Origin: Thiosocius teredinicola
GTDB lineage: Bacteria > Pseudomonadota > Gammaproteobacteria > Chromatiales > Chromatiaceae
DNA: 64,000 bases
Direction of reading: 5' to 3'
NCBI RefSeq assembly: GCF_002009425.1
Contig: NZ_CP019936.1
Location: 1,721,297-1,785,296, forward strand
A program made the position numbers and the translations under genes. Shown here one piece after another: positions 29,209 through 47,190 of this stretch (positions are counted from its first letter, which is position 1; the number at the start of each line of letters is the position of its first letter). The notes below the pieces were generated by a model. It made no database searches. It saw only the letters and a list, made by a program, of their open reading frames with translations, and was not told where the DNA came from.

Positions 29209-29829
29209 CTAGTGTGAAATCAAGGTGCGTGCAATGCCGACCAATTGGCGGCGCTGCTTGTCGTCCATGTCCGAATAGATCGTCATCAGTTCGCGCAGTT
29301 CGTCGGGAAACGAGGCGCACAGGCCATCCGACTCGATATGTTGTTCGTCCAGCCACGTTCGCGGTTTGTCGCCGGCTTTCTCTATCTTGCGCGCCAGGCG
29401 ATCGCCGATATGCTTGAAGGGGTTATCGATGTGCTCGATGACCGTCGACGGTTTGAGATGCAGATCGGCGATGAAGGCCGCGGTGGCGTCCTGCGAGGTG
29501 TCGGCGGCCATCTGGTACAGATAGACGAGATTTTGATGACGCACTGCCTGCAGGTCGCGTTCGCCGGATCGAATCGGCCCGAGGCCAAACATGATCCAGC
29601 AAACAGAGGTGCCGGTGAGCTTGGCGATTGTTGTGACATCGTTGGGGTGGGGCATGGAGTAACCTGCCTCGTACCACGACAGCCTGTTCTCCGGCCATTT
29701 CGGCAACTTGCGTTTGAACTCCTTCGCCGATTTGAAGCCGGCCATCTTGCGTGCCTGCGCGATACGTTTGCCGATCTTTATGGCAAGAGGATCTTTGGTG
29801 CGCGAAGGGGATGAATGAATTTTTGTCAT
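29209..29829 (-). CDS. XRE-family helix-turn-helix transcriptional regulator (phage-repressor-like)
   Basis: HTH segment IGKRIAQARKMAGFKSAKEFKRKL...DVTTIAKLTGTSVCWIMFG. Start at the internal ATG (MTKIHSS). Sits at the edge of the tRNA islet. Confidence 0.65.
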   Translation of the reverse strand: MTKIHSSPSRTKDPLAIKIGKRIAQARKMAGFKSAKEFKRKLPKWPENRLSWYEAGYSMPHPNDVTTIAKLTGTSVCWIMFGLGPIRSGERDLQAVRHQNLVYLYQMAADTSQDATAAFIADLHLKPSTVIEHIDNPFKHIGDRLARKIEKAGDKPRTWLDEQHIESDGLCASFPDELRELMTIYSDMDDKQRRQLVGIARTLISH

Positions 29830-29926
29830 ATGCAAAAAAAGTTCTTGCAAAGTAAGTTTTGCCAATTATACTTTGCGCCATTCCAGCGGGGTATGCCCGC
29901 GATAACTTTTTTTACTGGAGTTGAAC

Positions 29927-30079
29927 GTGCGTTTTCTGAACGAGCCAAGAACACAAGCCGAACGCGATGTGCGGTCAGTACTGACCGTCGCGGGCAGTCT
30001 GTGCTCGTTTGCGGTCCGGGGTGTCGACGGGTTTGTTGGCACGCTTGGCGACAAGCAACTGAAGATTGGTATGAATTGA
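29927..30079 (+). CDS. small hypothetical ORF (50 aa, GTG start with GGAG Shine-Dalgarno), divergent from the XRE gene and ending before a strong terminator
   Basis: ggag-N8-GTG. Translation MRFLNEPRTQAERDVRSVLTVAGSLCSFAVRGVDGFVGTLGDKQLKIGMN. No homology recognised. Confidence 0.3.
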   Translation: MRFLNEPRTQAERDVRSVLTVAGSLCSFAVRGVDGFVGTLGDKQLKIGMN

Positions 30080-30135
30080 CGCACTGCGATTGAAGGATCG
30101 GAGGCGTCGAGATGGATTGACGCCTTCCGGAAAGA

Positions 30136-30167
30136 ACCCCGGTAGGTGATGAACCCCGGGGTTTTTT
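30136..30167 (+). terminator. rho-independent terminator (ccccgg...ccgggg followed by T7), preceded by a second 9-bp hairpin
   Basis: aaccccggtaggtgatgaaccccggggttttttt. An upstream hairpin ggaggcgtc...gacgcctcc sits at ~30099-30127. Confidence 0.7.
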
Positions 30168-30195
30168 TGTGCCCGGTGGTTGGGAATTGAACAAC

Positions 30196-30432
30196 AGGTC
30201 GCTGGTGTAACGGTTAGCACATCGGCCGGTCAGGAAAGCGTTGGTGATTCTGGGCAGATTGAGAAGTGTTCGAAACAGACTGAATCAAGGCGCGAATCGC
30301 GCGTAATAGCGAGCTATTGCGAAGATTCGTAACGCTTAGTCGGTTTGTTTCGAGCGCTTGGCAACTGACCACGAATTGCCAACGCTTTCCTCAAGCCGAA
30401 AGGTACAGGTTCGAATCCTGTGCGACCTACCA
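30196..30432 (+). tRNA. tRNA-Asp(GUC)-like gene interrupted in the anticodon loop by a 158-bp insertion (putative disrupted or unusually processed tRNA)
   Basis: 5' half: acceptor aggtcgc, D-arm gtgt-aacggtta-gcac, anticodon stem tcggc. 3' half ~165 nt downstream: gccga, variable aaggt, T-arm acagg-ttcgaat-cctgt, acceptor gcgacct, then a + cca. All four stems are fully complementary. Removing the insert and one TCA copy restores a 7-nt loop cggtcaa with anticodon GUC. Confidence 0.6.
30233..30390. mobile_element. 158-bp MITE-like insertion with 12-bp perfect terminal inverted repeats (GGAAAGCGTTGG...CCAACGCTTTCC) flanked by a 3-bp TCA direct repeat, inserted in the tRNA anticodon loop
   Basis: The TIRs are exact reverse complements. 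TCA is duplicated on both flanks. The interior contains a 7-bp hairpin (ttggcaa...ttgccaa). No coding capacity. Confidence 0.55.
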
Positions 30433-30436
30433 GACT

Positions 30437-30513
30437 GCGCTCATGGCCAAATGGATGAAGGCACCCGGTTGCGAACTGGGAGATTCCGGGTTCGAGTCCT
30501 GGTGAGCGCGCCA
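30437..30513 (+). tRNA. 77-nt cloverleaf tRNA with anticodon GCG (Arg-decoding) but a Ser/Leu-type D-arm (3-bp GCC/GGC stem, 11-nt loop) and a short variable loop; a non-canonical tRNA
   Basis: Acceptor gcgctca/tgagcgc, then g and an encoded CCA. Anticodon arm cccgg-ttGCGaa-ctggg with U33 and A37. T-arm ccggg-ttcgagt-cctgg. Flanked by a 10-bp inverted repeat cagactgcgc/gcgcagtctg. Confidence 0.6.
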
Positions 30514-30569
30514 AGTCGCGCAGTCTGCAGAGGCGGACTGCTTGTTCAACGTGAGAAAGGAGGTGTGCC

Positions 30570-30647
30570 ATGCCACGCATCAAATGGGACGACGAACGTT
30601 GGGAAGACCGGGCCAATAGCTTTCGAAAAGATGTCGAAGCGGAGTAA
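30570..30647 (+). CDS. 25-aa small ORF with a perfect AAGGAGG Shine-Dalgarno ([25 protein letters not shown])
   Basis: gagaaaggaggtgtgccATG. The ORF terminates with TAA, overlapping the next ORF start. Confidence 0.4.
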
Positions 30648-30825
30648 GGGTTATCCGTCGGAAACAAACGTGAAGCGCGGAGAACGCATCGTAAACAAAG
30701 ACAAGGAACTGCTGGAAAAATTGGGTCGGAACGATCCGTGCCCGTGCGGCTCGGGCCGTAGGTTTCAAGCAGTGCTGCCTCGAAAGGAAGTCCTTTCGAC
30801 AGCAGTGATCGCAAGGATTACGTAA
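30631..30825 (+). pseudogene. SEC-C-motif (YchJ/SecA C-terminal zinc-binding motif) small protein gene with an apparent +1 frameshift inside the metal-binding motif
   Basis: Translation reaches ...[21 protein letters not shown], then reads QAVLP... A 1-nt shift after ttt-c restores [13 protein letters not shown]-stop, matching the consensus CPCGSGKKFKKCC. Confidence 0.5.
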
Positions 30826-30854
30826 GAGATTGAAGGGCGGGTCGTATTGGCGCT

Positions 30855-30885
30855 GCTGTCCTTCAAATGAACTCCCTCGAAGCGG
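30855..30885 (+). repeat. tRNA-like acceptor/T-arm minihelix element (ccctcga-a-gcgg-ttcgact-ccgc-tcggggg)
   Basis: A 7-bp stem stacked on a 4-bp stem with a T-loop-like ttcgact loop. A related copy lies at 31096-31130. Confidence 0.4.
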
Positions 30886-31015
30886 TTCGACTCCGCTCGG
30901 GGGAACAAGGTCCTCATCAGGACGTTGCGTGACCGTGGTTGGGCTTCAGAACGCCCGCCGGCGCCGCCTGCACTGCAGTCCGGTGTACCGCACGCAATGG
31001 TCGATGGAGACTCCA

Positions 31016-31089
31016 CTGGATATAGCTCAGTTGGGTAGAGCAATCGCCTTACACGCGATCAGTCAGAGGTTCGAATCCTCTTATCTAGA
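31016..31089 (+). tRNA. tRNA-Val(UAC)
   Basis: Acceptor ctggata/tatctag (one G-U pair), D-arm gctc-agttgggta-gagc, anticodon arm atcgc-ctTACac-gcgat, T-arm agagg-ttcgaat-cctct, discriminator A. CCA is not encoded. Confidence 0.8.
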
Positions 31090-31095
31090 CCTGGA

Positions 31096-31130
31096 AAGGG
31101 CGAGAGCCCCGCGGTTCGATTCCGCTTACA
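31096..31130 (+). other. tRNA 3'-half-like fragment (hairpin gggc-gaga-gccc plus T-arm-like gcgg-ttcgatt-ccgc), related to the element at 30855-30885
   Basis: Contains a T-loop consensus ttcgatt but no matching 5' acceptor or D-arm. An inverted repeat ccgcgat...atcgcgg lies further downstream. Confidence 0.4.
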
Positions 31131-31429
31131 CCCGAGGCAAGGCCCCGGTGAGTTCCGCGATCGTGTATCGCGGATGTCGTCTCACAGCATGCTGGATGCC
31201 TGCGTGACGCCGAGCCGGTAACGGCCAGTGCGCTTCCCATCGCGATGGATGGTCAGACCAGGGACGGTCAGCCAGACAAAACGACCGGAAGCGCACCCGC
31301 TGCTATCGATCGATGTCACCCGCACCGTGCATGTGGGGCCGAGCCTTTTCGAAGCGCATCTTCGGGTGCGCTTCGCAAAGGCGAACGGAAGTTCACGAGG
31401 AATGCACTAACGATAACAAGGAGAAGAAA

Positions 31430-32572
31430 ATGATGATGTTCAAGCATTTTGTGGTCGCTCAGCACGAACGCGCCTTGCTGTACCGTGACCGTCAGTTGGT
31501 CGCCGTGCTTGCACCGGGCGTACACCGCTACTTCGACCCGACCGGTCGGATTTCGGCAACTGTGTTCGACCTGTCGCAGACCGAATTCGCGGATGCCAAC
31601 GCGGACCTGTTGATGAAGACCTCGGGCGACTTGCTCGACGGTTACCTGATGCAGGTCTTGATGGGTGATCACGAGGTCGGCCTGGTGTACCGCGACGACA
31701 CCTTCGTTACGGCATTGGCGCCGGGCGAGCGCAAGGTGTTCTGGAAGTTGCCGCACCAGTTGCGTGTTGAACGCGTTGCGGTCGACACCGAGCTGCAGGT
31801 GGCCAAGCAATTGGTCGATGCGATTGTGCGTACCAAAGGTGGCGTCGTGTCGCGTGCATTGATGCCGTTCGTCTACAGCGCCGAAGTGGCGGACAACCAG
31901 GTTGGCCTGTTGTTTGTCGACGGTGAGATGGCACAGGCATTGAAGCCGGGTTATTACGTGTACTGGGCGGTCAAACGCCGTGTGGTGGTTGAGCCGTACG
32001 ATACCCGTATCCAGGCCATGGAAGTGCAGGGCCAGGAGATCCTGACCCGCGACAAGGTGTCGCTGCGGGTGAACCTCGGTGCACAGTACCGTGTGGCCGA
32101 TGCGGTGAAGGCACGCGCTGATCTGCAACAGCCGATCGAATGGCTGTACCGTGAACTGCAGTTTGCGTTGCGCCAGGCGGTGGGTTCGCGCGATCTCGAC
32201 AAACTGTTGGAAGACAAGGAACGTGTCGACCACGAAGTGTTCGAGAAGGTGGTGGCCACGGCTGCAGAGCACGGTTTCGATCTGCGTAGCGTGGGTATCC
32301 GCGACGTCATCCTGCCGGGTGACATGAAGGATATCCTGAACCAGGTCGTGCAGGCCGAAAAAGCCGCTCAGGCGAACGTCATCAAGCGACGTGAAGAAAC
32401 GGCAGCGACCCGTTCGCTGTTGAACACGGCAAAGCTGATGGACGAGAACCCGACCTTGCTGCGCCTGAAAGAGTTGGAAACGCTCGAGAAGGTGACCGAG
32501 AAGGTCGATCGCCTGACCGTGTTTGGTGGTCTCGACGGCGTGTTGAAAGACACGGTCAAGATCAATGTTTAA
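31430..32572 (+). CDS. SPFH/band-7 (stomatin/flotillin-like) domain protein without a predicted TM, with a C-terminal coiled coil
   Basis: Start at the internal ATG MMMFKHF with an AAGGAGAAG Shine-Dalgarno. SPFH-like core VSLRVNLGAQYRVADAV. C-terminal Glu/Lys/Leu-rich helices. Confidence 0.7.
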   Translation: MMMFKHFVVAQHERALLYRDRQLVAVLAPGVHRYFDPTGRISATVFDLSQTEFADANADLLMKTSGDLLDGYLMQVLMGDHEVGLVYRDDTFVTALAPGERKVFWKLPHQLRVERVAVDTELQVAKQLVDAIVRTKGGVVSRALMPFVYSAEVADNQVGLLFVDGEMAQALKPGYYVYWAVKRRVVVEPYDTRIQAMEVQGQEILTRDKVSLRVNLGAQYRVADAVKARADLQQPIEWLYRELQFALRQAVGSRDLDKLLEDKERVDHEVFEKVVATAAEHGFDLRSVGIRDVILPGDMKDILNQVVQAEKAAQANVIKRREETAATRSLLNTAKLMDENPTLLRLKELETLEKVTEKVDRLTVFGGLDGVLKDTVKINV

Positions 32573-32653
32573 CGTTAACCCGCCCGGTCGTTGTGGTTCG
32601 CCACACGCCGGGCACAAACTCAATGGAAGACAACAGGACGAGGGAGAAGAACG

Positions 32654-33853
32654 ATGCCTGTTAAACATACCCTGAACAAGGGCAAGGTGCCGGTACATAT
32701 CTGGACCGAGGATGCCGAGTCGCAGGCGATGACGCAGTTGGCGAACATCGCGCAGCTGCCGTTCGTGCATCACCACGTGGCGGCGATGCCGGATGTGCAT
32801 GCGGGTATCGGTGCAACCGTCGGTTCGGTGATCCCGACCAAAGGCGCGATCGTGCCGGCGGCCGTTGGTGTGGATATCGGCTGCGGCATGAACGCGCTGC
32901 GTACCTCGCTGAAGGCCGAAGACCTGCCGGAGAGCCTGCGTCGCGTGCGAAACGCGGTCGAGGCGGCAATCCCGGTCGGCTTTGATATGCATAAGAACGA
33001 TCCGGTGAAGCGATCGACCATCACGCCGATGGCCAAAGGCCTGGACGTGATCATCGACAAGCATCCGGCGCTTGCGCGTATGCAGAAGAAGCGTCCGTAC
33101 GATGTCTGGGTGCGTCAACTGGCGACACTCGGCGGCGGCAACCACTTTATCGAGCTGTGCCTGGACGAGGTGGGTGATGTCTGGATCATGTTGCACTCCG
33201 GTTCACGTGGAATCGGCAACATCATCGGGCGCTACTTCATCAACCTGGCGCGACACGATATGGGTGACCAGCTGGGCCGACTGCCCGACAAAGATCTGGC
33301 GTACTTCACCGAGGGTGCGAAGCACTTCGAGGACTATGTCGAGGCGGTGCATTGGGCGCAGGACTACGCGATGGTCAACCGTCGGGAAATGATGCGCTCG
33401 ATCATCTCGGCACTGGAGAAGTATCTGCCGCCGTTCACGATCACCAAAGAGGCGATCAACTGCCACCATAACTATGTGGCACGTGAAACCCACTTCGGTG
33501 CCGACGTGTACGTAACGCGCAAAGGTGCGATCCGGGCCGGCGAAGGTGAGCTGGGCATCATCCCGGGCTCGATGGGCGCCAAGTCGTACATCGTGCGCGG
33601 TAAAGGCAATGCCGAGTCGTTCTGCTCGTGTTCGCACGGCGCGGGCCGACGCATGTCGCGTAGCAAGGCGAAGAAGCAGTTCAGCCAGACGGACCTGGAA
33701 CACCAGACCGAGGGTGTTGAATGTCGCAAAGACAGCGGGGTGATCGACGAGATCCCCGGTGCCTATAAAGACATCGACGTGGTAATGGCGAACCAGACCG
33801 ACCTGGTTGAAGTGGTACACACACTGAAACAGGTGCTGTGTGTGAAAGGCTGA
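32654..33853 (+). CDS. rtcB: RNA-splicing ligase RtcB (3'-phosphate/5'-hydroxyl nucleic acid ligase)
   Basis: Conserved motifs MPDVHAGIGATVGSV, GGGNHFIEL, HSGSRGIGN, NCHHNY and SHGAGR. Start at the internal ATG with a GGAGAAG Shine-Dalgarno. Confidence 0.9.
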   Translation: MPVKHTLNKGKVPVHIWTEDAESQAMTQLANIAQLPFVHHHVAAMPDVHAGIGATVGSVIPTKGAIVPAAVGVDIGCGMNALRTSLKAEDLPESLRRVRNAVEAAIPVGFDMHKNDPVKRSTITPMAKGLDVIIDKHPALARMQKKRPYDVWVRQLATLGGGNHFIELCLDEVGDVWIMLHSGSRGIGNIIGRYFINLARHDMGDQLGRLPDKDLAYFTEGAKHFEDYVEAVHWAQDYAMVNRREMMRSIISALEKYLPPFTITKEAINCHHNYVARETHFGADVYVTRKGAIRAGEGELGIIPGSMGAKSYIVRGKGNAESFCSCSHGAGRRMSRSKAKKQFSQTDLEHQTEGVECRKDSGVIDEIPGAYKDIDVVMANQTDLVEVVHTLKQVLCVKG

Positions 33854-33854
33854 G

Positions 33855-33881
33855 TGGGCCGGGGCTTCGGCCCACTCTTTT
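33855..33881 (+). terminator. rho-independent terminator after rtcB
   Basis: gtgggccggggcttcggcccac followed by tcttttt. Confidence 0.75.
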
Positions 33882-33894
33882 TACGAAACCAGTA

Positions 33895-34110
33895 ATGGAA
33901 GCAAAAGCAATGGCGAACAAGACCAACAAGGCAAGAAACCTGTTGCACAACCACCCGATGATGAAGAAGGGTGGCGTGCATCAGAAATCGAACAAGGCAC
34001 AACGTAAAAAGGAGAAAATGGCGCTGCGCAAGGCGTGGTTTTCTCCGAGTGCAGCCATGTCGGCTGTATTCGGAGAAGACCGTGCACGCATTGACATGGT
34101 TCATTGTTAA
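33895..34110 (+). CDS. small highly basic hypothetical protein (71 aa)
   Basis: ORF within listed 33838..34110, after the terminator. Lys/Arg-rich (KARNLLHNHPMMKKGGVHQKSNKAQRKKEKMALRKAW). Lower-GC region. Confidence 0.35.
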   Translation: MEAKAMANKTNKARNLLHNHPMMKKGGVHQKSNKAQRKKEKMALRKAWFSPSAAMSAVFGEDRARIDMVHC

Positions 34111-34223: not shown

Positions 34224-34589
34224 ATGCCATGGCAATACAGTCAGAGTACTGGAGTACTCACAAGGGATGGGCGCGTAGTCGGAACCGGCTATTCGGGAGC
34301 AGCTGGCGTTGGGCGAAACAATCCAGATGCCGAGCGACTGACTGACGTGGGTCCGATACCGCGAGGTCAGTATCGAATTGGGGCTCAATATTCGCATCAG
34401 TCGAAAGGGCCCGTTACTATGGCGTTAAATCCCGTCAATCACTCAGCGCATGGTCGAATGCATTTTCTCATTCACGGAGACAGTATCCGGAATCCCGGCA
34501 ATGCTTCTCAAGGTTGTATTATTCTTCGGCGTGATATCCGAGAACGTATTGCCAACAGCGGTGATGCAGTTTTGGAGATTGTGAGATGA
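34224..34589 (+). CDS. Tlde1-like/DUF2778-type L,D-transpeptidase-fold toxin domain protein
   Basis: The motif HFLIHGDSIRNPGNASQGCIIL matches the His...Ser-x-Gly-Cys catalytic signature of YkuD/Tlde1 L,D-transpeptidase domains. Low-GC islet. GGAG Shine-Dalgarno. Confidence 0.6.
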   Translation: MPWQYSQSTGVLTRDGRVVGTGYSGAAGVGRNNPDAERLTDVGPIPRGQYRIGAQYSHQSKGPVTMALNPVNHSAHGRMHFLIHGDSIRNPGNASQGCIILRRDIRERIANSGDAVLEIVR

Positions 34590-34942
34590 CCCGTTTGTCT
34601 ATAGCGATCGTGGTGCTGACACTGTTTTCTAGTCCAGCGGTCGCCGACCCGGATTGTACTAGCCCCGATGCTTGGCCGGCCGGTATGGCGTTCACGCATC
34701 TGAAGAACGCGGGGTTGGTGACCAACTACAACTTGGATTTCGATAAAACGACCGTAACCCGATTGGCATCGGAAAGAGTGGGTGACGACCTCTATCGCCA
34801 GATTCACAGAGTGTCGTTTGTGAGAAAGTCTGGAGCAAAACTCGAAGCAATTACCGTCAATGATGCGTCGAATGAAGAGTGTTCCATGTCGGGCGTCGAC
34901 GTTTATGTCATCGAGAAGATGCTAGGCGACTTCAGCTCATAA
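34586..34942 (+). CDS. periplasmic immunity-like protein (signal peptide), translationally coupled to the upstream toxin-like gene
   Basis: ATGA overlap with the upstream gene. Signal peptide MTRLSIAIVVLTLFSSPAVA. Small soluble domain. Same low-GC islet. Confidence 0.55.
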   Translation: MTRLSIAIVVLTLFSSPAVADPDCTSPDAWPAGMAFTHLKNAGLVTNYNLDFDKTTVTRLASERVGDDLYRQIHRVSFVRKSGAKLEAITVNDASNEECSMSGVDVYVIEKMLGDFSS

Positions 34943-37747: not shown

Positions 37748-38806
37748 TCAACAGATGCGCGGCAACTGTTCGCCCACAAGCATGTCGACAATGCGTTCGC
37801 CGCCGAAACCGGTTTCGAGAATCACGCTACCATGCGGCGCCTCGACCACATGACCGATGATCGCGCTGTGCTCACCCGCCGGGTGTGCCTGCATCGCAGA
37901 GAGCACCTTGGCAGAGGCATCGGCCGGCACGATCGCAACGAGTTTGCCCTCGTTCGCCAGGTAGAGCGGGTCAAGCCCGAGCAACTCGCTGAGTCCGCGT
38001 ACCTCGGCACGTACGGGCAGCGCTTCCTCGCGGATGCGGATGCAGGTGTCGCTGGCGTCGGCGAATTCGTTGAGCACGGTCGCTATGCCTCCGCGCGTTG
38101 CGTCGCGCAGGCAATGGATGTCCGGGCAGACATCGAGCATCGCTGCGATCAGGCCGTTCAGCGCGCAGCAATCGGTTTCGATATGGCTTTCGAGCGCCAT
38201 ATCGCCGCGCGCGTCGGCAATCGCGGCACCGTGGTCGCCGACGTAGCCGTTGATGATAACGACATCGCCGGCACGTGCGCGTTGCGTGCGGATGTCGATG
38301 CCGTGAGGTATCACGCCGACGCCGGCGGTATTGATAAACAGCTTGTCGGCAGCGCCCTTGTGTACCACCTTGGTATCGCCGGTGACGATCTTCACGCCGG
38401 CGGCATCCGCCGTCGCCTTCATCGATGCGACGATACGCCGCAGGTCGTCGACCGCGAAGCCCTCTTCGATAATCATGCCGCAGGTCAGGTACAGCGGCAC
38501 CGCGCCGCCGACGGCAAGATCATTGACCGTGCCGGCCACCGCCAGCTTGCCGATATCGCCTCCGGGAAAGAACAACGGATCGACGACATAGGAATCGGTC
38601 GTCATGGCCAGCGTGCCGCCGAGGGCGTTGAGCGAATCAAGGCTGATGCGTGCCTGGTCTTCGAGGGCTGCCAGGGTTTCGTTGGCAAAGCCGTCGACGA
38701 ACACATCGTTGATCAGGTCGCGCATCGCCTTGCCGCCGGCGCCGTGCGCCAGCGTGATCGTTTTGCCTTTCAGGCGCGGTTTGGCTGCGGTGTTGGATGC
38801 ACTCAT
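37748..38806 (-). CDS. hypE: hydrogenase maturation protein HypE (carbamoyl dehydratase)
   Basis: AIR-synthase-like fold. C-terminal ...PRIC with a terminal Cys. 4-nt overlap with hypD. Confidence 0.9.
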   Translation of the reverse strand: MSASNTAAKPRLKGKTITLAHGAGGKAMRDLINDVFVDGFANETLAALEDQARISLDSLNALGGTLAMTTDSYVVDPLFFPGGDIGKLAVAGTVNDLAVGGAVPLYLTCGMIIEEGFAVDDLRRIVASMKATADAAGVKIVTGDTKVVHKGAADKLFINTAGVGVIPHGIDIRTQRARAGDVVIINGYVGDHGAAIADARGDMALESHIETDCCALNGLIAAMLDVCPDIHCLRDATRGGIATVLNEFADASDTCIRIREEALPVRAEVRGLSELLGLDPLYLANEGKLVAIVPADASAKVLSAMQAHPAGEHSAIIGHVVEAPHGSVILETGFGGERIVDMLVGEQLPRIC

Positions 38807-39963
38807 GCGGAGGCCTCGTGGCGTTGCTTGTCGTTACGCTTGGCGAGCAGTTCGGGCAGGTTGCCGAAGTTATAGTAGGCGGCGCACGCCCCTTCGGATG
38901 ACACCATCAACGCACCCAGCGGCGTCTCGGGCGTGCAGGTGCCGCCGAACACCTTGCACTCCCATGGGCGTATCACGCCCTTGAGTACTTCGCCGCACTG
39001 GCAGGACTTCGGGTCGGCAATCTTCAGGTTGGGCACGGCGAACTTGCGCTCGGCATCGAAACGGGCGAACGCATCGCGCATTTTCACGCCGGAATGGTCG
39101 ATCGAACCCAGGCCGCGCCATTCGAAGAACTCGCGCAGTTCGAAGACCTGGTGGATCGCGTCGAGCCCGGCCGGGTTGCCCTGCTTGGGCACCACCCGCG
39201 CATACTGGTTTTCTACCTCGCAGCGCCCTTCGGCGAGTTGCCTGATCACCATCCACAGTGACTGCACGATATCCAGCGGTTCGAAGCCGGTGATGACGAT
39301 CGGTTTCTTGTAGGTGTCGGCGACGAACTCGAAAGGGCCTTCGCCGACCACCATGCTGACATGGCCCGGCGCGAGGAATCCGTCGAGCTGCATGTCGGGC
39401 GAATCGAGAATGGCCTTGATCGTCGGCACCGTGGTGATGTGGTTGCAGAACAGTGAGAAGTTGTCGCGGTTCTCGCGCTGCGCCTGCAAGACGGTCAGCG
39501 CCGTGCTCGGCATCGTCGTCTCGAATCCCAGGCCGAAGAAGATCACTTGGCGGTCCGGGTTGCGGCGCGCCAACTCGAGCGCGTCGAGCGGCGAATACAC
39601 CATGCGGATATCGGCGCCATCGGCCTTGGCCTGCAGCAGGCTTTTCTTTGAACCGGGCACGCGCATCGCATCGCCGAAGGTCGCGAAGATCACGTCGGGT
39701 CGTTCGGCCAAGGCAACGCAGTCATCGACCCGGCCCATCGGCAGCACGCAGACCGGACAGCCCGGGCCATGCACCAGTTCGATCCGTCCCGGCAGCATCT
39801 GTTCGATACCGTAACGGAAGATCGTGTGCGTATGGCCGCCGCAGAACTCCATGATCTGCAACGGACGTTGTTTGGCGGCCGGGATGCGGTCGAGCAGTAC
39901 GGCGATCTCATCGATCAGGCGTCGTGCCGCCTTGGGGTCGCGGAATTCGTCTACGTATTTCAT
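38803..39963 (-). CDS. hypD: hydrogenase maturation protein HypD
   Basis: CGGHTH, GPGCPVC and CxxGE..C..C C-terminal cysteine motifs. Start at the internal MKYVDEF. Confidence 0.9.
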   Translation of the reverse strand: MKYVDEFRDPKAARRLIDEIAVLLDRIPAAKQRPLQIMEFCGGHTHTIFRYGIEQMLPGRIELVHGPGCPVCVLPMGRVDDCVALAERPDVIFATFGDAMRVPGSKKSLLQAKADGADIRMVYSPLDALELARRNPDRQVIFFGLGFETTMPSTALTVLQAQRENRDNFSLFCNHITTVPTIKAILDSPDMQLDGFLAPGHVSMVVGEGPFEFVADTYKKPIVITGFEPLDIVQSLWMVIRQLAEGRCEVENQYARVVPKQGNPAGLDAIHQVFELREFFEWRGLGSIDHSGVKMRDAFARFDAERKFAVPNLKIADPKSCQCGEVLKGVIRPWECKVFGGTCTPETPLGALMVSSEGACAAYYNFGNLPELLAKRNDKQRHEASA

Positions 39964-40646
39964 GTCGCTGCTCCGAGTTGGCCGCGATGATCGGCGAGCA
40001 GGGTGTGCACCAGGTCCCACAGGATGTGGTAACAGGCGACATGCACCTCCTGCACGCGGTGAATGGAATCGGTTTCGACGACAAGGCAGTGATCCACCAG
40101 CCCGCTGGATCGCATCTCGCCGCCATCGCCACCGGCCAGGCCGAGTGTGACCAGGCCGAGTTGCTTGGCCTTGCGATAGGCATTGATCAGGTTGTCGGAA
40201 TTGCCGCTGGTCGAAAAGCCCATCACGCCGTCACCGGCGCGCGCATGCGCCTCGAGTTGGCGGACGAATACATGCGCCATGCCGACATCGTTGCCGACGG
40301 CCGTCAACATCGCGGTGTCGACGCACAAATTCATCGCCGGCAGGGCGGGGCGGCCGGCAGTCACCGGGTGTTGGAACTCGACGGCGAAGTGCGCGGCATC
40401 GCAGCTCGAACCGCCGTTGCCCATGCTGAACATCCGACCCTGGCGGCGATAGACATCCGCGACCGCCGTTGCGGCCTCGATCAGCGCTTCGCCGTGCTGG
40501 GTAAAAAACTGCTGTTTCACGGCAACGCTGTCAGCTGCCTTGCGTTCTATTGAATTCAGCAGCGCCTGGTGTTCCTGCGCGGCATCTTTGGTCTTGCCGT
40601 GCAGGAAGGGGTACAGCGCTTGAAGACGGTCGTCGCTGTCGCTCAC
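39960..40646 (-). CDS. SIS-domain phosphoheptose-isomerase-like protein (GmhA/DiaA family) embedded between hypC and hypD
   Basis: GmhA-like core MFSMGNGGSSCDAAHFAVEF and GFSTSGNS. The GTG start overlaps the hypC stop. The Arg-rich N-terminus of ORF 39960..40928 is an artefact. Confidence 0.7.
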   Translation of the reverse strand: MSDSDDRLQALYPFLHGKTKDAAQEHQALLNSIERKAADSVAVKQQFFTQHGEALIEAATAVADVYRRQGRMFSMGNGGSSCDAAHFAVEFQHPVTAGRPALPAMNLCVDTAMLTAVGNDVGMAHVFVRQLEAHARAGDGVMGFSTSGNSDNLINAYRKAKQLGLVTLGLAGGDGGEMRSSGLVDHCLVVETDSIHRVQEVHVACYHILWDLVHTLLADHRGQLGAAT

Positions 40647-40930
40647 GTTTGCTCTGCCGCCGTTTGTTGCATCGCGTTCAGTTCGTCCTGCATCTCGCCC
40701 AGTTCCTGCAGGATCGCCAATGTCTTCTGTGCCTCGTCTTCGTCGATACGACTCATCGCAAATCCGACATGCACCAGTACCCAGTCGCCGATGCAGTCCG
40801 CGGCGGGCCTTGTTTCGGTGACCACGCAGGCGATGTTCACAGCGCGCCGTACACCGGCGACGTCCACCTTCGCCATGAAGTTGTCGGCGTCGGTGATCTC
40901 GACGATCTGTCCGGGGATGCCAAGACACAT
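40643..40930 (-). CDS. hypC: hydrogenase maturation factor HypC
   Basis: N-terminal MCLGIP. ~95 aa. Confidence 0.88.
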   Translation of the reverse strand: MCLGIPGQIVEITDADNFMAKVDVAGVRRAVNIACVVTETRPAADCIGDWVLVHVGFAMSRIDEDEAQKTLAILQELGEMQDELNAMQQTAAEQT

Positions 40931-40951
40931 AGTGCTTACCTCTTACCTTGC

Positions 40952-42418
40952 TCAGTGCACCGTACAGACCATGCAGGGGTCGAACGAGCGCACGATGTGC
41001 TGTATGGAAACGGTCTGTTTGCCGTTGTCGCCGACCTCGGTGCCGATCAGCGCCTGTTCCAGCGCGCCCGGTACATCGTCCTGGTCGCGCGGAGAGAAAT
41101 TCCAGGTGGTCGGGGCGACGATCTGGTAGTTCAGAATCCGCCCGTGCTTAATCTGCAGCCAGTGGCCCAGGCTGCCGCGTGCCGCTTCGACGAGACCGAC
41201 CCCTTCACCGTCTTTGGGCAACTTGCCTTGGTTACAGAAGGTTTCACCGATGGCGATGGCTTTGATCCAGCCTTCCATCATGGGAACCACGCGCGCCAGT
41301 TCGAGCAGGCGCGCAACCACTCGGCTGAACACATTGCCGCCGCCGTTCGTCACCAGTTCGGCGATCAAGGGGTGGCCGTCGATCAACTGGCGTGCGACGG
41401 CGCCCACCTCGAAGACCCGGCCGTTGTAGCGCGGCGCCTTGCACCAGCTGTAGGCATCGGCGATATCGGCGTCGGGCAGGGTACTGCCGTCGAAGGGGTG
41501 TTTCGGCGTGCGTTGCGCGTGCATCCAGGCGTGACTGATGTCTTCGGTGATGGCGCGCTGCTCGAACGACTCGCGGCGACCGTCGAACCAGATGCCGGAT
41601 TCGAAACGGTGGGTCTCGTTGGGGTGACCGGTGGCATAGGCACCGTAGCTCATGAAGTGGTCGGTGGCGCGTCCGAGTTTGGCCAAGCCGGCCGAAGCCG
41701 CGATGCGGACGAAATGCGCGAAGTCGCCACCGGCATGCTGTCCGGCCCATGCCATCAGCTCATCTTCGGTAGCGATTGCAGCGACGTTCTCCAGCTTGTC
41801 GGCAAACAGTGTGGTTTCGAGAAAGCGCCGAAAACCTGCAACGATGGATTGAAGGCGCAGTTTTTCACGCGGCTCGATCGCGCGCGTCGTACCGCCCGGC
41901 TGCAGGGCCAGCGAGTGAGGCCATTTGCCGGCGAGCAGGCCGGTGATGTGCATCCATTCGCTGCGTGCCGGCAACATGTCGCGCGATGCGCTGCCTTTCT
42001 GTGCAACGAAGCGCTCGGCGGCATCGCGATGCCAGGCATGTTCGGCATAGTCGCTGCGCGCGAAGTCGGGCATGAAGAACAGGTAGAAGTGCGACAGATG
42101 GTCGGCGACGTTCTCACAGGCAAGGATCAGGTTGGTCGCCAACAGGCCGTTGGGCGTCTGCTCGATCCCCTGTGCATCGGCGAGGGCGCGTGCGGCGGCG
42201 ACCGACTGCGAGACCGAGCAGATGCCGCAGATACGCGGCGTGATCACGAGCGCATCGCGCGGGTCCTTGCCGACCAGGATCTGTTCGAATCCACGGTAAA
42301 GAGGTGAGTTCACCCAGGCCGACTCGATTCTTCCCTCGTCGATCTCGACCTGAACTTCGAGATCACCTTCGACGCGATTGAATGGTCCGAGGATGCGACG
42401 TGTGGAGTTGCCCGCCAT
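40952..42418 (-). CDS. hupV: regulatory (H2-sensing) [NiFe]-hydrogenase large subunit HupV/HoxC
   Basis: RICGICS N-terminal and DPCMVCTVH C-terminal Ni-binding motifs. The protein ends at the His with no cleavable extension, as in sensor hydrogenases. Confidence 0.85.
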   Translation of the reverse strand: MAGNSTRRILGPFNRVEGDLEVQVEIDEGRIESAWVNSPLYRGFEQILVGKDPRDALVITPRICGICSVSQSVAAARALADAQGIEQTPNGLLATNLILACENVADHLSHFYLFFMPDFARSDYAEHAWHRDAAERFVAQKGSASRDMLPARSEWMHITGLLAGKWPHSLALQPGGTTRAIEPREKLRLQSIVAGFRRFLETTLFADKLENVAAIATEDELMAWAGQHAGGDFAHFVRIAASAGLAKLGRATDHFMSYGAYATGHPNETHRFESGIWFDGRRESFEQRAITEDISHAWMHAQRTPKHPFDGSTLPDADIADAYSWCKAPRYNGRVFEVGAVARQLIDGHPLIAELVTNGGGNVFSRVVARLLELARVVPMMEGWIKAIAIGETFCNQGKLPKDGEGVGLVEAARGSLGHWLQIKHGRILNYQIVAPTTWNFSPRDQDDVPGALEQALIGTEVGDNGKQTVSIQHIVRSFDPCMVCTVH

Positions 42419-43428
42419 CAGCGTTCACCCCGTTTCTTGTCGCTGCCCGGCGGCACCACGATGTGGTCGGCAACTGCATTTTCGCGCAGGCGCTTGGGTG
42501 TCGCGGCTTTCGACAGGGAAGCCAGCGCAACGAACCATGCCTTCGGCATATCCGTGGGCAGGCCGATCGGTATGCCGGCAATCTTCGGTGTTTCGGTGAA
42601 CGGATGCCCGGGTTCTTCGAACACCGGTGCGGTGCAGTTGATGCAGGCATAGCCGCCGCGAATACACGAGCCTTCGCCGTTCCACGGGCGGCGGTTGCAG
42701 TCGGCATGCGCCTGGGTGCCCAGGCAGCCCATGTGCTCCATCATGCAGCCCTGATCGGATGGCGCCTCGGCGCTGGCCTTGAATTCGTAGAACTCGTTGC
42801 GCGTACAACCGTGATGTACCAGGTGATTGGTATAGCTGCGTGGACGGTTCCATTCGTCCAATTGCGTCTCGTCCATATCGCCCATCGCCACCTGCGCCAG
42901 GGTATCGGTGACCCAGCCGGGATGCACCGGGCAGCCGGCCACGTTGATTACGCGCAGTCCTTCCGGGCTGTGCCAGTCTTCGCCGAGCAGTCCGCCGGGC
43001 TGATTGCCCTCGTATTGCAGTCCACACGCCTCGGTCGGGTTGCCGCCGGCCATCGTCACGCCACCGAATGCAGCACACGAACCGATGGCGATTGTGTAGC
43101 GTGCCTTGCGCGACAGGTCGGCTATCCATTGCATCATCGGCCGACCGGTGCCGGCGAGCATATGAAAGCGCCCGGTATCATTGGGGCCGCGCATCACCGA
43201 GCCTTCGAGACAGAGGATGTCCAATGCCTGCTCGCCGCTCATGATGCGGTTGAGCAGATCGATGAATTCGCCGTTGGATGCCTCGCTGAGCGACGGATGC
43301 CAGAGCAGTTCGATGCCGGCGTATTCCAGTGTTGCGTAAAGATCCGGCGATTCGGCATTCAGCAGCGACATGCTGCAACCGCCACAGCTGCCGGATTGAA
43401 GCCACAAGGTACGCAACGCTGTCGTCAT
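42418..43428 (-). CDS. hupU: regulatory [NiFe]-hydrogenase small subunit HupU/HoxB (no Tat signal peptide)
   Basis: Starts directly MTTALRTLWLQSGSCGGCSMS with no twin-arginine leader. Fe-S cluster cysteines are present. Overlaps the hupV start. Confidence 0.85.
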   Translation of the reverse strand: MTTALRTLWLQSGSCGGCSMSLLNAESPDLYATLEYAGIELLWHPSLSEASNGEFIDLLNRIMSGEQALDILCLEGSVMRGPNDTGRFHMLAGTGRPMMQWIADLSRKARYTIAIGSCAAFGGVTMAGGNPTEACGLQYEGNQPGGLLGEDWHSPEGLRVINVAGCPVHPGWVTDTLAQVAMGDMDETQLDEWNRPRSYTNHLVHHGCTRNEFYEFKASAEAPSDQGCMMEHMGCLGTQAHADCNRRPWNGEGSCIRGGYACINCTAPVFEEPGHPFTETPKIAGIPIGLPTDMPKAWFVALASLSKAATPKRLRENAVADHIVVPPGSDKKRGER

Positions 43429-44795
43429 TCACTCAACTCCAACGGCACGGTCAAGGTAAATACAGCGCCACCTTCGTCGCGATTGGCTCCTTCCAGTTTG
43501 CCCTGGCACTGATCGGTGGCCAGCGAATAGCTGATGTACAGGCCGAGGCCGGTCCCTTTGCCGACCGGTTTGGTGGTGAAGAAGGGGTCGAACACGCGCA
43601 GCAACTGGTCTGGTGCGATGCCGGTGCCGTTGTCTGAGACCTCGACGGTCACCGTTGAATTCTGGGTGCCGGCGCGTATCGCAATGCGTCCATCCTTATA
43701 GTCTTCGATTGCGTCGGCGGCATTCTGGATCAGGTTGACCAGAATCTGGTGGACGTAGCCTTCGTAGCCGTACAGTTCGAGCGATGGCGGGATGTCGATG
43801 ACCACTTCGGGCCGTTCGCGGCGTGCCTTGATCACCCATTCGGCCGCCGTGTTGATGACCCGGCTGAGATCGAAGCGGCTGCACTGTTGTTGGTTCGGCG
43901 TCGAGAAACGACGCAGGTCTTCGACGATCTCGCCGACGCGTTCGGCGCCTTCGAGCGAGCCGTCGATCAGCGGGCCGATATCCTGCAGCAGGCGGTCGAT
44001 CTTCAGATCGCTGCGCAGTTGTTCGCGCTCTTTGTCGCTCGCCGAACGGTGAATCGCACCGAGGTATTCGGCGAGGCGTTTCTCGTAGCGTTTCAACGCG
44101 TGCATGTTGCCGAACACGAAGCTGATCGGGTTGTTCAATTCGTGCGCGACGCCGGCCACCAGCTGGCCGAGCGATGCCATCTTTTCCGATTGCACCAATT
44201 GTTGCTGCGCGGTCTTCAATTGATCGTGCGTCTCGCGCAGATCCTGGTAGGCGCGGCGCAGTTCGCCCAGCGGCCGACCGGTGATCACCAGCCCCGACAG
44301 GCGACCGTCGTGATCGAAGCGCGGTGTGCAGTTGATCGCGATCGGCGCGCCTTCGCCGTCGGGGCCGCGCAGTTCGACCTCGCAATCGGTGATCACGTCA
44401 GTGCGGATATGCTCGGCGAAGTCTTCGACCTGTTCGGCGTATTCCTCGGTGAACAAGGTGCCGAGCGCGACGCCGGTCAGGTCGCTGGCAGTGCGACCGG
44501 TGAGTTCTTCGAGTGCGCGGTTGACCTGCTGGATGCGACCGCGGGTGTCGGCGACGATCAGCACATCGGTCATCGACGAGATCACGCTCTGGATGAAGCG
44601 GTGCGCATCCTCCAAGCCGGCATTCTTTTCTTCGAGTTCGACCTGGTAACGCACGATGTCCGCATAGATGGTATCCATGCGCTGGATCACCTCGATCCAT
44701 GCCGATTCATCGACCATACCGTGCTCGATGTTGCCGACACGCGCCATCAGGCCGCCGATGTCGTCGTTTGCCGCCTTGTCGCCGGGCGACGTCAC
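43425..44795 (-). CDS. hupT: PAS-domain histidine kinase HupT/HoxJ
   Basis: PAS region, then HisKA H-box VAHELNNP and an HATPase_c (GTGLGL) block. Sits between hupR and hupUV. Confidence 0.85.
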   Translation of the reverse strand: MTSPGDKAANDDIGGLMARVGNIEHGMVDESAWIEVIQRMDTIYADIVRYQVELEEKNAGLEDAHRFIQSVISSMTDVLIVADTRGRIQQVNRALEELTGRTASDLTGVALGTLFTEEYAEQVEDFAEHIRTDVITDCEVELRGPDGEGAPIAINCTPRFDHDGRLSGLVITGRPLGELRRAYQDLRETHDQLKTAQQQLVQSEKMASLGQLVAGVAHELNNPISFVFGNMHALKRYEKRLAEYLGAIHRSASDKEREQLRSDLKIDRLLQDIGPLIDGSLEGAERVGEIVEDLRRFSTPNQQQCSRFDLSRVINTAAEWVIKARRERPEVVIDIPPSLELYGYEGYVHQILVNLIQNAADAIEDYKDGRIAIRAGTQNSTVTVEVSDNGTGIAPDQLLRVFDPFFTTKPVGKGTGLGLYISYSLATDQCQGKLEGANRDEGGAVFTLTVPLELSE

Positions 44796-46279: not shown

Positions 46280-47190
46280 ACGTGATTCTTGACCGACTCG
46301 GCGATGTTCAGCGGTTCGGACAGGGGATGACCGATCAGGCGCAATTGGCGCGACCCACGAATCCAGGCATACCAGTCGCTCATGCCTTCGCCGGTGGTTG
46401 CAGACACCTTGAGGACCTGTAGCTTGGGGTTCACCCGGCGCGCGTAGGCGATGCATTTGTCGACATCAAAATTCAGATGCGGCAGCAGGTCGATCTTGTT
46501 CAGCAGCATCAGGTCGGCCGCATGGAACATGTCCGGGTACTTGATCGGCTTGTCTTCGCCTTCGGTAATCGACAGGATCGCGACCTTGTGTGCCTCGCCC
46601 AGATCGAACGCGGCGGGGCACACCAGGTTGCCGACATTCTCGATGAACAACACCGAGCCGGTCTGCGGCTTGAGGTGCTCGATGGCGTGCCCGACCTGAT
46701 GCGCATCGAGATGGCAGCCCTTGCCGGTGTTGATCTGAATCGCGTGTGCGCCGGTCTCGCGAATGCGTTCGGCATCGTTGCTGGTTTCCTGGTCGCCTTC
46801 GATAACCGCCAGCGACAGTTCGTCTTTCAGATCGGTCAGGGTGCGGGTCAGCAGGGTGGTTTTGCCCGAACCCGGTGAAGACACCAGGTTGAGCGCGAGG
46901 ATGCCCTGGTCTGCCAGCATCTGGCGGTTTGCATTGGCGTATTGATCGTTTTTGCTCAGGATGTCCTGTTCGATCTGCACCATGCGTGATTGCGACATGC
47001 CGGGGGCATGTGCGCGCGCCGGCCCATGACCGTAGTGATGATCGTCGCCATGGCCATGCGCATGCGAGTGTTCATGCTCGTGATCATCATGATGGTGGTG
47101 AGGATGGTCGTGAGAATGCGAGTGATCGTGATCGTCGGTGACACCTTCGATACGCGATTCACCTTCGCCGCAGCCGCAGACGGTACACAT
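46276..47190 (-). CDS. hypB: hydrogenase nickel-incorporation GTPase HypB with a long His-rich N-terminal Ni-storage region
   Basis: [10 protein letters not shown], then a [33 protein letters not shown] stretch. GTPase P-loop [11 protein letters not shown]. Confidence 0.9.

Follow-up and report, generated by a model that had tools for sequence, protein, structure and literature searches.

RtcB RNA ligases are widespread in bacteria, and outside Escherichia coli and Salmonella their physiological substrates and helpers are largely unknown. A locus in the gammaproteobacterium Thiosocius teredinicola poses this question in a compact form: a gene for RtcB follows one for an SPFH/Band-7 protein, with tRNA-like genes upstream. 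What does the ligase do here, and with which partners? The locus lies in a stretch of 64,000 nucleotides (nt) of contig NZ_CP019936.1 (positions 1,721,297 to 1,785,296, forward strand), which is referred to below as the window and to which all coordinates refer unless another locus is named. It belongs to a type of Band-7/RtcB/tRNA-like RNA system that was predicted in 2016, and comparison with related loci identifies a tRNA-like gene as the partner that most consistently accompanies the SPFH gene. The region also contains a small gene that is probably decoded through several programmed +1 frameshifts. The core of the locus consists of three elements:

31430-32572, forward strand: SPFH/Band-7 ('slipin family') gene, 380 amino acids (Pfam PF01145, E = 2.9e-25)
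32654-33853, forward strand: gene for the RtcB 3'-phosphate/5'-OH RNA ligase, 399 amino acids (PF01139, E = 3e-131, 438.8 bits, whole model)
33852-33882, forward strand: intrinsic terminator ending the SPFH-RtcB unit, an 11-bp stem with eight GC pairs followed by TTTTT

The two genes are on the same strand and separated by a gap of 81 nt, in which no terminator-like site was found. The SPFH gene has a ribosome-binding site, AAGGAG (31418-31423), 6 nt before its ATG. RtcB enzymes join 2',3'-cyclic-phosphate or 3'-phosphate ends to 5'-OH ends. The motifs DIGCG, GGGNHF, HSGSRG, HHN and SHGAGR, which make up the metal and GMP-histidine motifs, can be read directly in the translation of the window copy, and judged by its sequence the protein is a ligase with all catalytic motifs present. 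Its best score is against the phage RtcB family PHROG 1075 (496 bits), above its scores against bacterial NCBIfam models. It falls below the cut-offs of both the E. coli equivalog (181.6 bits; cut-off 407) and the PrfH-linked RtcB2 model TIGR03073 (148.8 bits; cut-off 271.8), and its relatives of solved structure are distant.

The SPFH protein is 100% identical to a T. teredinicola protein annotated as "slipin family protein" and belongs to a large family, with at least 7,998 matches at E ≤ 1e-10, the best of which are about 380 amino acids long. It has no membrane anchor, with a maximum Kyte-Doolittle hydropathy over 19 residues of 0.92. In an AlphaFold model based on 50 homologues (predicted local distance difference test score 81.5), β-strands are present from residue 4 onwards. 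The N-terminal part is made from two β-rich repeats (residues ~1-47 and 73-117), each followed by short helices; the middle is a stomatin-type core (residues 148-294), and the C-terminus is a 65-residue helix (residues 297-364). This is a soluble, stomatin-type protein. It differs from the membrane SPFH proteins (stomatin, HflK/C, prohibitin, QmcA and flotillin) in lacking both the anchor and the NfeD partner: no NfeD was found among its neighbours, either in the related loci or in Pfam scans of the window, which covered the open reading frames (ORFs) from 15.8 to 49 kb, about 15 kb to either side of the cassette. SPFH proteins form rings or cages via the C-terminal helix, and in the solved complexes matched in a fold search, every SPFH protein sits in a ring or cage. 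By analogy, the window protein probably oligomerises too, but in the cytoplasm. A weak resemblance to the shoulder domain of the major vault protein of the eukaryotic vault may reflect the shared SPFH fold only.

The same Pfam scans contain no RTC, RtcR/CARF, archease or TROVE domains, and tBLASTn with a verified RtcA query (PF01137) found no RtcA homologue in the whole 64 kb (E > 0.7 only). The sole Sigma54_activat protein (44792-46456) bears a Response_reg domain, lies in a hyp gene region farther downstream and is not RtcR. No PrfH or other release-factor-like ORF adjoins RtcB. The initial annotation of this DNA had described an SPFH gene without a transmembrane segment, paired with rtcB, closed by a strong terminator and locally devoid of rtcA and rtcR, and this description holds throughout. 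The locus thus shares its ligase superfamily and chemistry with the canonical rtcBA/rtcR system of E. coli, but has neither the cyclase nor the CARF sigma-54 activator, and its divergent gene encodes a helix-turn-helix (HTH) protein of the XRE type. It is also distinct from the RtcB2-PrfH ribosome-repair module, given the absence of PrfH and the score below the TIGR03073 cut-off.

Whether SPFH and RtcB are partners or chance neighbours was addressed by comparing 80 genomic loci with SPFH homologues (46-69% identity; mostly Gammaproteobacteria), labelled L001 and so on. RtcB is found within 6 kb of the SPFH gene, the distance used for counting linkage, in 43 of the 80, most often directly downstream, so the context comparison proposed at the outset shows the pairing to be recurrent. 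More constant still is a tRNA-like gene on the same strand upstream of the SPFH start, which is present in 74 of the 80 loci at a distance of 150-1200 nt, mostly 270-620; of the six loci without one, at least two have less than 300 nt of upstream sequence available. All-against-all clustering of the ORFs yielded no further protein family common to the 80 loci, which are chromosomal and lie in varied contexts. Since the SPFH/tRNA-like/RtcB arrangement recurs in dozens of unrelated genomes, it exceeds chance, and the view of SPFH as a genuine partner of RtcB is supported. The tRNA-like gene is nevertheless the most constant partner of SPFH, more so than RtcB, and the nearby tRNA-like genes therefore belong to the system and are not background. 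The initial annotation had treated the tRNA-rich surroundings as mere context, a view that has to be revised. In the loci without RtcB, no conserved protein partner emerged; the downstream genes are unrelated (MFS transporters, permeases, a transposase and regulators).

Taken by itself, the pairing had looked like an unexplained oddity. It matches, however, a system predicted by Burroughs and Aravind in 2016, as quoted in 10.1101/312249, that combines a Band-7 protein, RtcB and a tRNA associated with band-7 (the b7a-tRNA). According to the same source, the b7a-tRNA is a predicted noncoding RNA strongly resembling tRNA that had not been experimentally validated, and the system is functionally analogous to Ro/YrlA, with which it occasionally exchanges partners (10.1101/312249). 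Because the Band-7 gene of the window adjoins RtcB and has a tRNA-like gene beside it, the two sequence features that define the system as quoted, the cassette is a member of it, and the pairing itself is not new; nothing in the window contradicts the membership, as far as the system is described there. Several features go beyond the prediction in its quoted form: the free-running anticodon loop, the elbow minihelix, the two N-terminal β repeats, the tRNA arrays and HNH genes, the HTH regulator and the frameshifted SEC-C gene, all of which are described below. The system has been known computationally since 2016 and is experimentally untouched.

The exchange of partners with the Rtc/Rsr world mentioned in the quoted prediction has a counterpart in Citrobacter freundii (NZ_CP151862.1; L082:3966-7919), where rtcR and a gene of this SPFH family are divergently oriented and the latter is followed by a Pfam-verified RlaP nucleotidyltransferase gene (PF10127). 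In E. coli STEC639 (CP061233.1; L081:6004-7928), the same family precedes a gene annotated as a nucleotidyltransferase domain protein. In these enterobacteria, an RlaP-type nucleotidyltransferase thus takes the place of RtcB beside the SPFH family. By eye, the Citrobacter leader shows a sigma-54-like motif (TGGCAC) and a sequence resembling a T arm (GGGTTCGATTCCC); Rfam gave no tRNA match upstream of the Citrobacter or E. coli SPFH genes, even at permissive thresholds.

The RNA elements next to the SPFH gene are the following:

31016-31091, forward strand: SPFH-proximal tRNA-like gene, "tRNA-Val(UAC)", in the b7a-tRNA position (Rfam tRNA, 68.9 bits)
31092-31131, forward strand: 'elbow' minihelix directly 3' of the tRNA-like gene, made up of TGGAAA, a small GNRA-type hairpin and a T arm
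30873-30904, forward strand: minihelix in which an acceptor-like stem stacks on a T arm (fold -20.9 kcal/mol, z = -3.65)

The tRNA-like genes were called by ARAGORN, with scores from Rfam. The proximal gene of the window lies 339 nt upstream of the SPFH ATG and has a canonical Val(UAC)-type loop and an AU-rich acceptor stem with a C1-G72 pair; CCA is not encoded. Proximal genes in general have in common a D arm (TAGCTCAG..GGTAGAGCA) and a T arm (GGTTCGAnTCC) that are strongly conserved. The closest relatives (L001, L002, L003 and L040) share with the window the D arm, the anticodon stem and a TGGATA/TATCC acceptor motif, and have the anticodons TTG, TTT, GTA and TTG, respectively.

Over the whole set, the anticodon loop behaves quite unlike that of a decoding tRNA. 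It has 5, 6 or 8 nt rather than 7 in 18 of 73 proximal genes; among the 55 seven-nt loops, U33 is missing from 16 and A34 is present in 12. There are 31 different "anticodons", UUA included. Many Xanthomonadales copies have an acceptor stem of only 4 bp, and CCA is absent from most copies. Within a Competibacter-like group, loop identity is 0.48, compared with 0.92 for the tRNA body and 0.68 for the 4-fold degenerate sites of the adjacent SPFH gene, and the corresponding values for a Xanthomonadales-like group are 0.42, 0.78 and 0.66, a comparison that is crude because the GC content at third codon positions (GC3) is high. The Competibacter-like loops include CTCATCA, TTATGGA, TTTGTAA, CTGATAA, CCACGAA and TTACAAA, all on bodies that are 92% identical. 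The anticodon loop of the proximal RNA is free of decoding constraint, and the evidence is clear that the soluble SPFH protein has in the tRNA-like RNA a partner that does not decode.

An elbow element comes immediately after the tRNA-like gene in 27 loci, including the window; it consists of TGGTAA, then a small hairpin, then a T arm. All cells of the T stem (100%) are paired, the changes seen there being compensatory (CG/GC/UA), and none of 500 shuffles matched the covariation score; the folding energy of the window sequence alone is not significant. The minihelix at 30873-30904 lacks both the D arm and the anticodon arm, and a T-loop hairpin is also visible upstream of the proximal tRNA-like gene in L001 (~5240-5272).

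A known system close to this arrangement is the Salmonella rsr-yrlBA-rtcBA operon, in which Ro60/Rsr and Y RNAs are combined with RtcB and RtcA under activation by RtcR. Both pair RtcB with a candidate ring or cage scaffold and a tRNA-mimicking noncoding RNA. The window, however, has no TROVE/Ro protein, Y RNA (YrlA/YrlB), RtcA or RtcR; its scaffold is an SPFH protein, and its RNA comes close to a complete tRNA instead of being a Y RNA module. The SPFH/tRNA-like system would represent a second, independent pairing of RtcB with a cage-forming protein and a tRNA mimic, parallel to Ro/Y RNA and, more loosely, to the vault.

A different kind of parallel comes from cyanobacteria, whose tRNA "L-arrays" have an HNH gene and rtcB nearby that are induced together by translation inhibitors (PMC8421152). 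In Anabaena, TrcR, a ribbon-helix-helix (RHH) protein, acts as repressor of the trn array and of rtcB (all3526), and deletion of trcR raises expression of the slipin alr0740 more than 40-fold (PMC10272220); translation inhibitors raise the expression of both rtcB and the trn operon (PMC10272220, PMC8421152). As in the loci considered here, a tRNA array, an HNH gene (all8564), RtcB and a slipin-family protein are involved, and in Anabaena they respond jointly to translation stress. In contrast, the Anabaena genes are dispersed and RHH-controlled, whereas those in the window and its relatives are clustered and have an XRE-type HTH neighbour. This work is the only experimental hint, by analogy, that a tRNA array, RtcB and SPFH may act in one response.

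Clusters similar to the L-arrays do occur in the comparison set. Seven related loci (L004, L005, L006, L021, L027, L047 and L076) have 6-25 tRNA genes upstream of the proximal tRNA-like gene, and an HNH endonuclease of about 200 amino acids is encoded near the cassette in ten (L004-L006, L017, L019-L021, L023, L032 and L076; e.g., L032:4825-5421), so that some loci carry both. Six loci (L001:7278-8228, L002:3281-4228, L013, L024, L034 and L050) were also seen to encode a protein of about 315 amino acids without Pfam or NCBIfam match, between SPFH and RtcB or just downstream, that is absent from the window. In the window itself, the array is short and has decayed in part, and a candidate regulator precedes it:

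29209-29865, reverse strand: divergent gene for an XRE/CI-like HTH protein, 218 amino acids (weak match to Pfam HTH_31; matches to NCBIfam DicA and PHROG repressor families)
29845-29872, forward strand: candidate sigma-70-like promoter TTGCAA-16-TATACT facing the cassette (consensus scan only)
30100-30168, forward strand: two strong hairpins, the second of which (30130-30168) ends in a U-run (fold of 30088-30175, -42.7 kcal/mol, z = -5.0)
30196-30432, forward strand: split tRNA-like gene (ARAGORN intron mode) with a palindromic insert of ~160-161 nt at 30232-30391
30437-30513, forward strand: tRNA-Arg with the unusual anticodon GCG and encoded CCA (ARAGORN; Rfam tRNA, 61 bits)
31132-31429, forward strand: structured SPFH leader with hairpins at 31196-31325 (130 nt) and 31343-31382 (17 bp; z = -3.9 and -5.6)

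Homologues of the HTH protein are encoded in the same divergent position in L001, L003 and L018, on the other strand in L005, and beside SEC-C and RtcB genes in L126 and L128, and the protein is a candidate repressor of the cassette. The promoter candidate is weak evidence, as promoter-like sites are no commoner in the region than in shuffled sequence. A sigma-54 promoter upstream of the tRNA-like gene was also considered and dropped, since the GG/GC spacing, checked by eye, is wrong in both the window and L001. The hairpin stretch at 30100-30168 is conserved with L001:3972-4028, and its second hairpin is a candidate terminator or attenuator before the tRNA-like genes. Between the HTH gene and this hairpin, there is an ORF of about 50 codons (29921-30079, forward strand; L001:3783-3933) that ends in ...MN in both loci and may encode a Cro-like repressor partner or a leader peptide. 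Closer to the SPFH gene, blocks of the leader and both of its hairpins are partly conserved in L001-L003, and the hairpins may act as an attenuator, a processing site or a small RNA.

The insert in the split gene sits in the anticodon loop, where it replaces U33 and the anticodon, and folds with -123 kcal/mol (z = -9.8). Because it is a near-perfect palindrome, its homologue in L001 (L001:4635-4711, BLASTN; Lys(UUU)-type loop) is uninterrupted, and a related palindrome (L001:5005-5140) occupies the loop of a different tRNA-like gene (L001:4960-5200), it looks like a mobile palindromic element. It may be an element of the MITE (miniature inverted-repeat transposable element) kind that favours these loops or else a functional long-stem extension; no further copy was found in the 64 kb. 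For the same reasons, an intron spliced by RtcB was rejected as the main interpretation. No bulge-helix-bulge motif is evident at the split tRNA, and we know of no bacterial enzyme that cuts such an insert to RtcB-compatible ends. The Arg(GCG) species recurs in the arrays of L021, L027, L041 and L140. Rfam, run permissively (E ≤ 10) over 29850-31450, gave only tRNA-type matches and none to Y RNA, group I introns or other families for the split tRNA, the minihelices or the leader.

With moderate confidence, we favour the view that this Band-7/RtcB/tRNA-like locus is a horizontally mobile, self-contained cassette for RNA repair and translation rescue, induced by stress to rejoin tRNA or rRNA that has been cleaved. 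The divergent HTH repressor and the leader hairpins would keep the unit silent until damage to translation switches it on. The SPFH protein would then assemble into a ring or cage through its long C-terminal helix and bind the tRNA-like RNA together with the elbow minihelix. The resulting ribonucleoprotein might either hand broken tRNAs (or rRNA) over to RtcB or serve as an adaptor or decoy in the shape of a tRNA, as proposed for Ro60 and Y RNA with RtcB in rsr-yrlBA-rtcBA. RtcB would reseal the 2',3'-cyclic-phosphate/5'-OH breaks, allowing translation to recover. A module for the repair of RNA damage had already been suggested by the initial annotation, and it gains support from the presence of RtcB next to or near SPFH in more than half of the loci and from the rtcR/RlaP link in Citrobacter. 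The window offers a compact and complete example of the system in a cultivated organism, with a candidate regulator, a tRNA-like gene, a minihelix, SPFH, RtcB and a terminator.

Several points weigh against this view. RNA binding by the SPFH protein is a hypothesis, and no member of the system has been the subject of any experiment. RtcB is absent within 6 kb in 37 of the 80 loci, many of which have unrelated or convergent genes after the tRNA-like/SPFH pair, and the SPFH-RNA pair may therefore have a function independent of RtcB. In the proximal gene of the window itself, the anticodon loop is fully canonical and the acceptor stem has 7 bp, and this gene could be a working tRNA-Val. The terminator-like hairpin at 30130-30168 separates the only promoter-like site from the cassette. 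Finally, the Anabaena parallel depends on alr0740 being an orthologue of the SPFH family of the window.

The main rival, which we consider unlikely, gives the tRNA-like RNAs a different role as mimics of the targets of anticodon nucleases, with loops that diversify to match the nucleases encountered. Held by the SPFH cage, the RNAs would soak up the nuclease, or their cleavage would serve as an alarm; RtcB would recycle the cut decoys, which would be its main substrate instead of cellular tRNA. This would account for loops that, among close relatives, differ more than the synonymous sites of the adjacent gene on bodies that are 78-92% identical. However, loops of 5, 6 or 8 nt and those without U33 would be poor mimics of an anticodon loop, relaxed constraint explains the variation equally well, and the comparison with 4-fold sites suffers from the high GC3. 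The recurrent loop types (Lys UUU, Gln UUG and Met CAU, with Asn, Asp, His and Tyr in the arrays) overlap with targets known for PrrC, colicin E5, VapC and related nucleases, but a consistently linked nuclease gene is absent. A role as sponge has been proposed for array tRNAs (PMC8421152) and one as competitive inhibitor for YrlA (PMC7790460).

Still less probable is a reading of the tRNA-like genes as a partly decayed L-array of back-up tRNAs that are expressed under translational stress, with SPFH and RtcB merely co-regulated. The related loci in which 6-25 apparently normal tRNA genes and HNH lie upstream of SPFH fit this reading and match the cyanobacterial L-array neighbourhood with its HNH gene and rtcB (PMC8421152), and the Val(UAC) and Arg(GCG) genes of the window score as good tRNAs. 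On the other hand, the position of the SPFH-proximal gene is conserved even where there is no array, this gene is often incompatible with decoding and is followed by a non-tRNA minihelix, and one member of the window's array has been destroyed by an insertion. A phage-derived counter-defence island, i.e., the remnant of a phage that carried tRNAs and RtcB against tRNA-cleaving host defences, was also entertained by the initial annotation but is very improbable: the sole phage link proper is the PHROG 1075 score of RtcB, to which a CI-like repressor, low GC and a Tlde1-like neighbour matching a PHROG family can be added, whereas neither the SPFH protein nor the SEC-C gene matches anything in 50,697 phage records, the Pfam scans include no integrase or structural genes, no att-like direct repeats flank the region, and the related loci are chromosomal.

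Between the tRNA-Arg gene and the first minihelix lies a small gene that has apparently escaped correct annotation:

30570-30833, forward strand: small SEC-C zinc-knuckle gene with a strong Shine-Dalgarno (SD) sequence, an ATG and a 17-codon leader
30621-30627: site 0 (TTTCGAA), joining the leader to the N part; TTT-Y, mostly TTT-YGA-R, in register in 81 of 84 loci
30763-30769: site 1 (TTTCAAG), joining CPCGS... to FKxCC; TTT-[C/T]AA-[G/A], with a +1 shift in 65 of 80 metagenome loci and 4 of 6 genome loci
30794-30800: site 2 (TTTCGAC), joining ...SGx to FDGS; TTT-[C/T]GA-N, with a +1 shift in 21 of 86 loci and CGA or UGA as the A-site codon

In the Thiosocius genome, this ORF is annotated as a 64-residue "SEC-C metal-binding domain-containing protein". 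The gene is present in six of the SPFH loci (L002, L005, L013, L033, L037 and L044). The second half of the knuckle (FKxCC...YDGSxRxxYF) is in the +1 frame relative to the first in L002, L005, L013, L037 and the window, and in frame with it in L033 and L044. At least 557 relatives were found in metagenomes, of which 80 (L083-L162) were analysed together with the six genome loci. The 0-frame codon in the A site is CGA (43), UGA (20), CAC (8) or another (10) at site 0, and CAA (56) or UAA (11) in most of 70 cases at site 1. A leader frame with an ATG after an SD-like motif, often GGAGG, is found in 72 of 84 loci, usually 9-13 codons before site 0, and in many loci, the frame of the N part has no start codon, or has stops just upstream. 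If sites 1 and 2 are the only ones counted, just 4 of 86 loci can do without a shift. The window copy needs all three +1 shifts to yield a conceptual product of 86 residues that ends at the stop at 30831-30833.

The shifted frames appear to be translated, because sequence variability has a third-position periodicity, in-frame homologues exist, and the joined product is the better match to SEC-C. In the N part, variability at codon positions 1, 2 and 3 is 0.41, 0.30 and 1.50 bits, with its peak at the third position of the proposed frame, and after site 1, the values are 0.82, 0.76 and 1.33 bits. Homologues of the joined protein that are fully in frame include P0149 and P0126. Against the SEC-C model, the trans-frame product scores 39.5 bits and matches 18 of 19 positions, compared with 29.8 bits and 14 of 19 for the 0-frame product. 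The position and direction of the shift are conserved across distant taxa, the downstream frame is conserved as protein, and a slippery site is found at the junction. From these sequence patterns, the gene is probably a case of genuine recoding by programmed +1 frameshifting.

UUU followed by a pyrimidine is reportedly prone to +1 shifts in E. coli, according to Curran, Parker and colleagues. CGA is decoded slowly due to its I·A wobble pair, and the prfB gene for release factor 2 uses CUU-UGA-C for its own +1 shift. The SEC-C sites resemble prfB in that the P-site tRNA would slip onto an overlapping cognate codon next to a stop or slow codon, and the variants UUU-UGA-G/C and UUU-UAA-G are formally identical to it in logic. 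They differ from prfB in that there are up to three sites in a gene of about 90 codons, that the slippery codon is UUU-Y, and that the A-site codon is more often a sense codon (CGA or CAA) than a stop. No SD-like stimulator was noticed in the few junctions inspected, a point on which no systematic analysis was made. No prior description of a frameshifted SEC-C gene was found in the searchable literature, the GeneTack paper included, although an earlier account is possible. The family is widespread across phyla, and public annotation includes only truncated ORFs of 55-150 amino acids, i.e., a whole gene family would be mis-called by current annotation pipelines. If real, the triple-frameshift gene would be a rare example of multi-site programmed +1 frameshifting in bacteria and a natural reporter of tRNA or termination stress.

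The 80 metagenome loci have no constant neighbour of the SEC-C gene. The recurrent ones are all RNA-repair or translation genes: RtcB in 9 loci by ORF clustering or about 12 by tBLASTn, SPFH in 5, RtcA in 3 and tRNA arrays in about 8. One metagenome locus has the order HTH/SEC-C/RtcB and another SPFH/RtcB/SEC-C, and this recurrent linkage suggests that the gene belongs to the cassette. We offer, tentatively and at somewhat less than even odds, the further idea that it is a stress sensor working with the repair cassette, with a built-in read-out of translation damage. Basal output would be tiny, each UUU-Y site preceding a slow codon (CGA or CAA) or a stop (UGA or UAA), and would rise sharply if the Arg-ICG or Gln-UUG tRNAs or the release factors were depleted or cut, or if tRNA-Phe were under-modified. 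A ribosome-binding SEC-C peptide tied to that signal could let the gene report tRNA damage directly, in concert with RtcB, SPFH and the tRNA-like RNAs. In a comparison with PADLOC-DB 2.0, the SEC-C motif gave the only matches, to PDC-S12 and E2; the SPFH, RtcB, HTH and Tlde1 proteins and the small basic ORF described next gave none.

Two further features are found downstream of the terminator:

33910-34110, forward strand: small basic ORF with the motif RNxLHxHPLMRKGGxHxKSxKAxR, recurrent downstream of RtcB
34224-34589, forward strand: ORF with a Tlde1 domain (L,D-transpeptidase-like toxin; PF10908, E = 1.4e-13)

The small basic ORF is conserved in L001-L003 and L023 and, more weakly, in L004, L007, L024, L034 and L050, about ten loci altogether. 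It has no match in Pfam, NCBIfam or PDB, and its likeness to an ArfA-type rescue factor is superficial, having no support from Pfam, NCBIfam or PDB profiles. The Tlde1 ORF is overlapped at its end by 4 nt by an ORF with a signal peptide, plausibly encoding the immunity protein, and the pair (34224-34942) has the lowest GC content of the region. Because it has no counterpart in any related locus, the pair is excluded from the module and regarded as an unrelated neighbour in the same low-GC patch. The surroundings are otherwise as first described: the split and the odd tRNA, the minihelices, the toxin/immunity pair and the low GC content are all there, and it is the assignment of the pair to the module that has had to be given up.

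The GC content is 0.51-0.60 over 29-37 kb, compared with 0.61-0.65 in the flanks, in keeping with the difference anticipated earlier. The flanks consist of housekeeping genes: an Mla-type transporter and a TPR protein upstream, and LysR, di-haem peroxidase and hyp genes downstream. The last of these form a hydrogenase maturation and regulation cluster (37748-47190) that encodes HypE, HypD, a HypB/CobW-type GTPase, a PAS histidine kinase and an NtrC-type sigma-54 activator.

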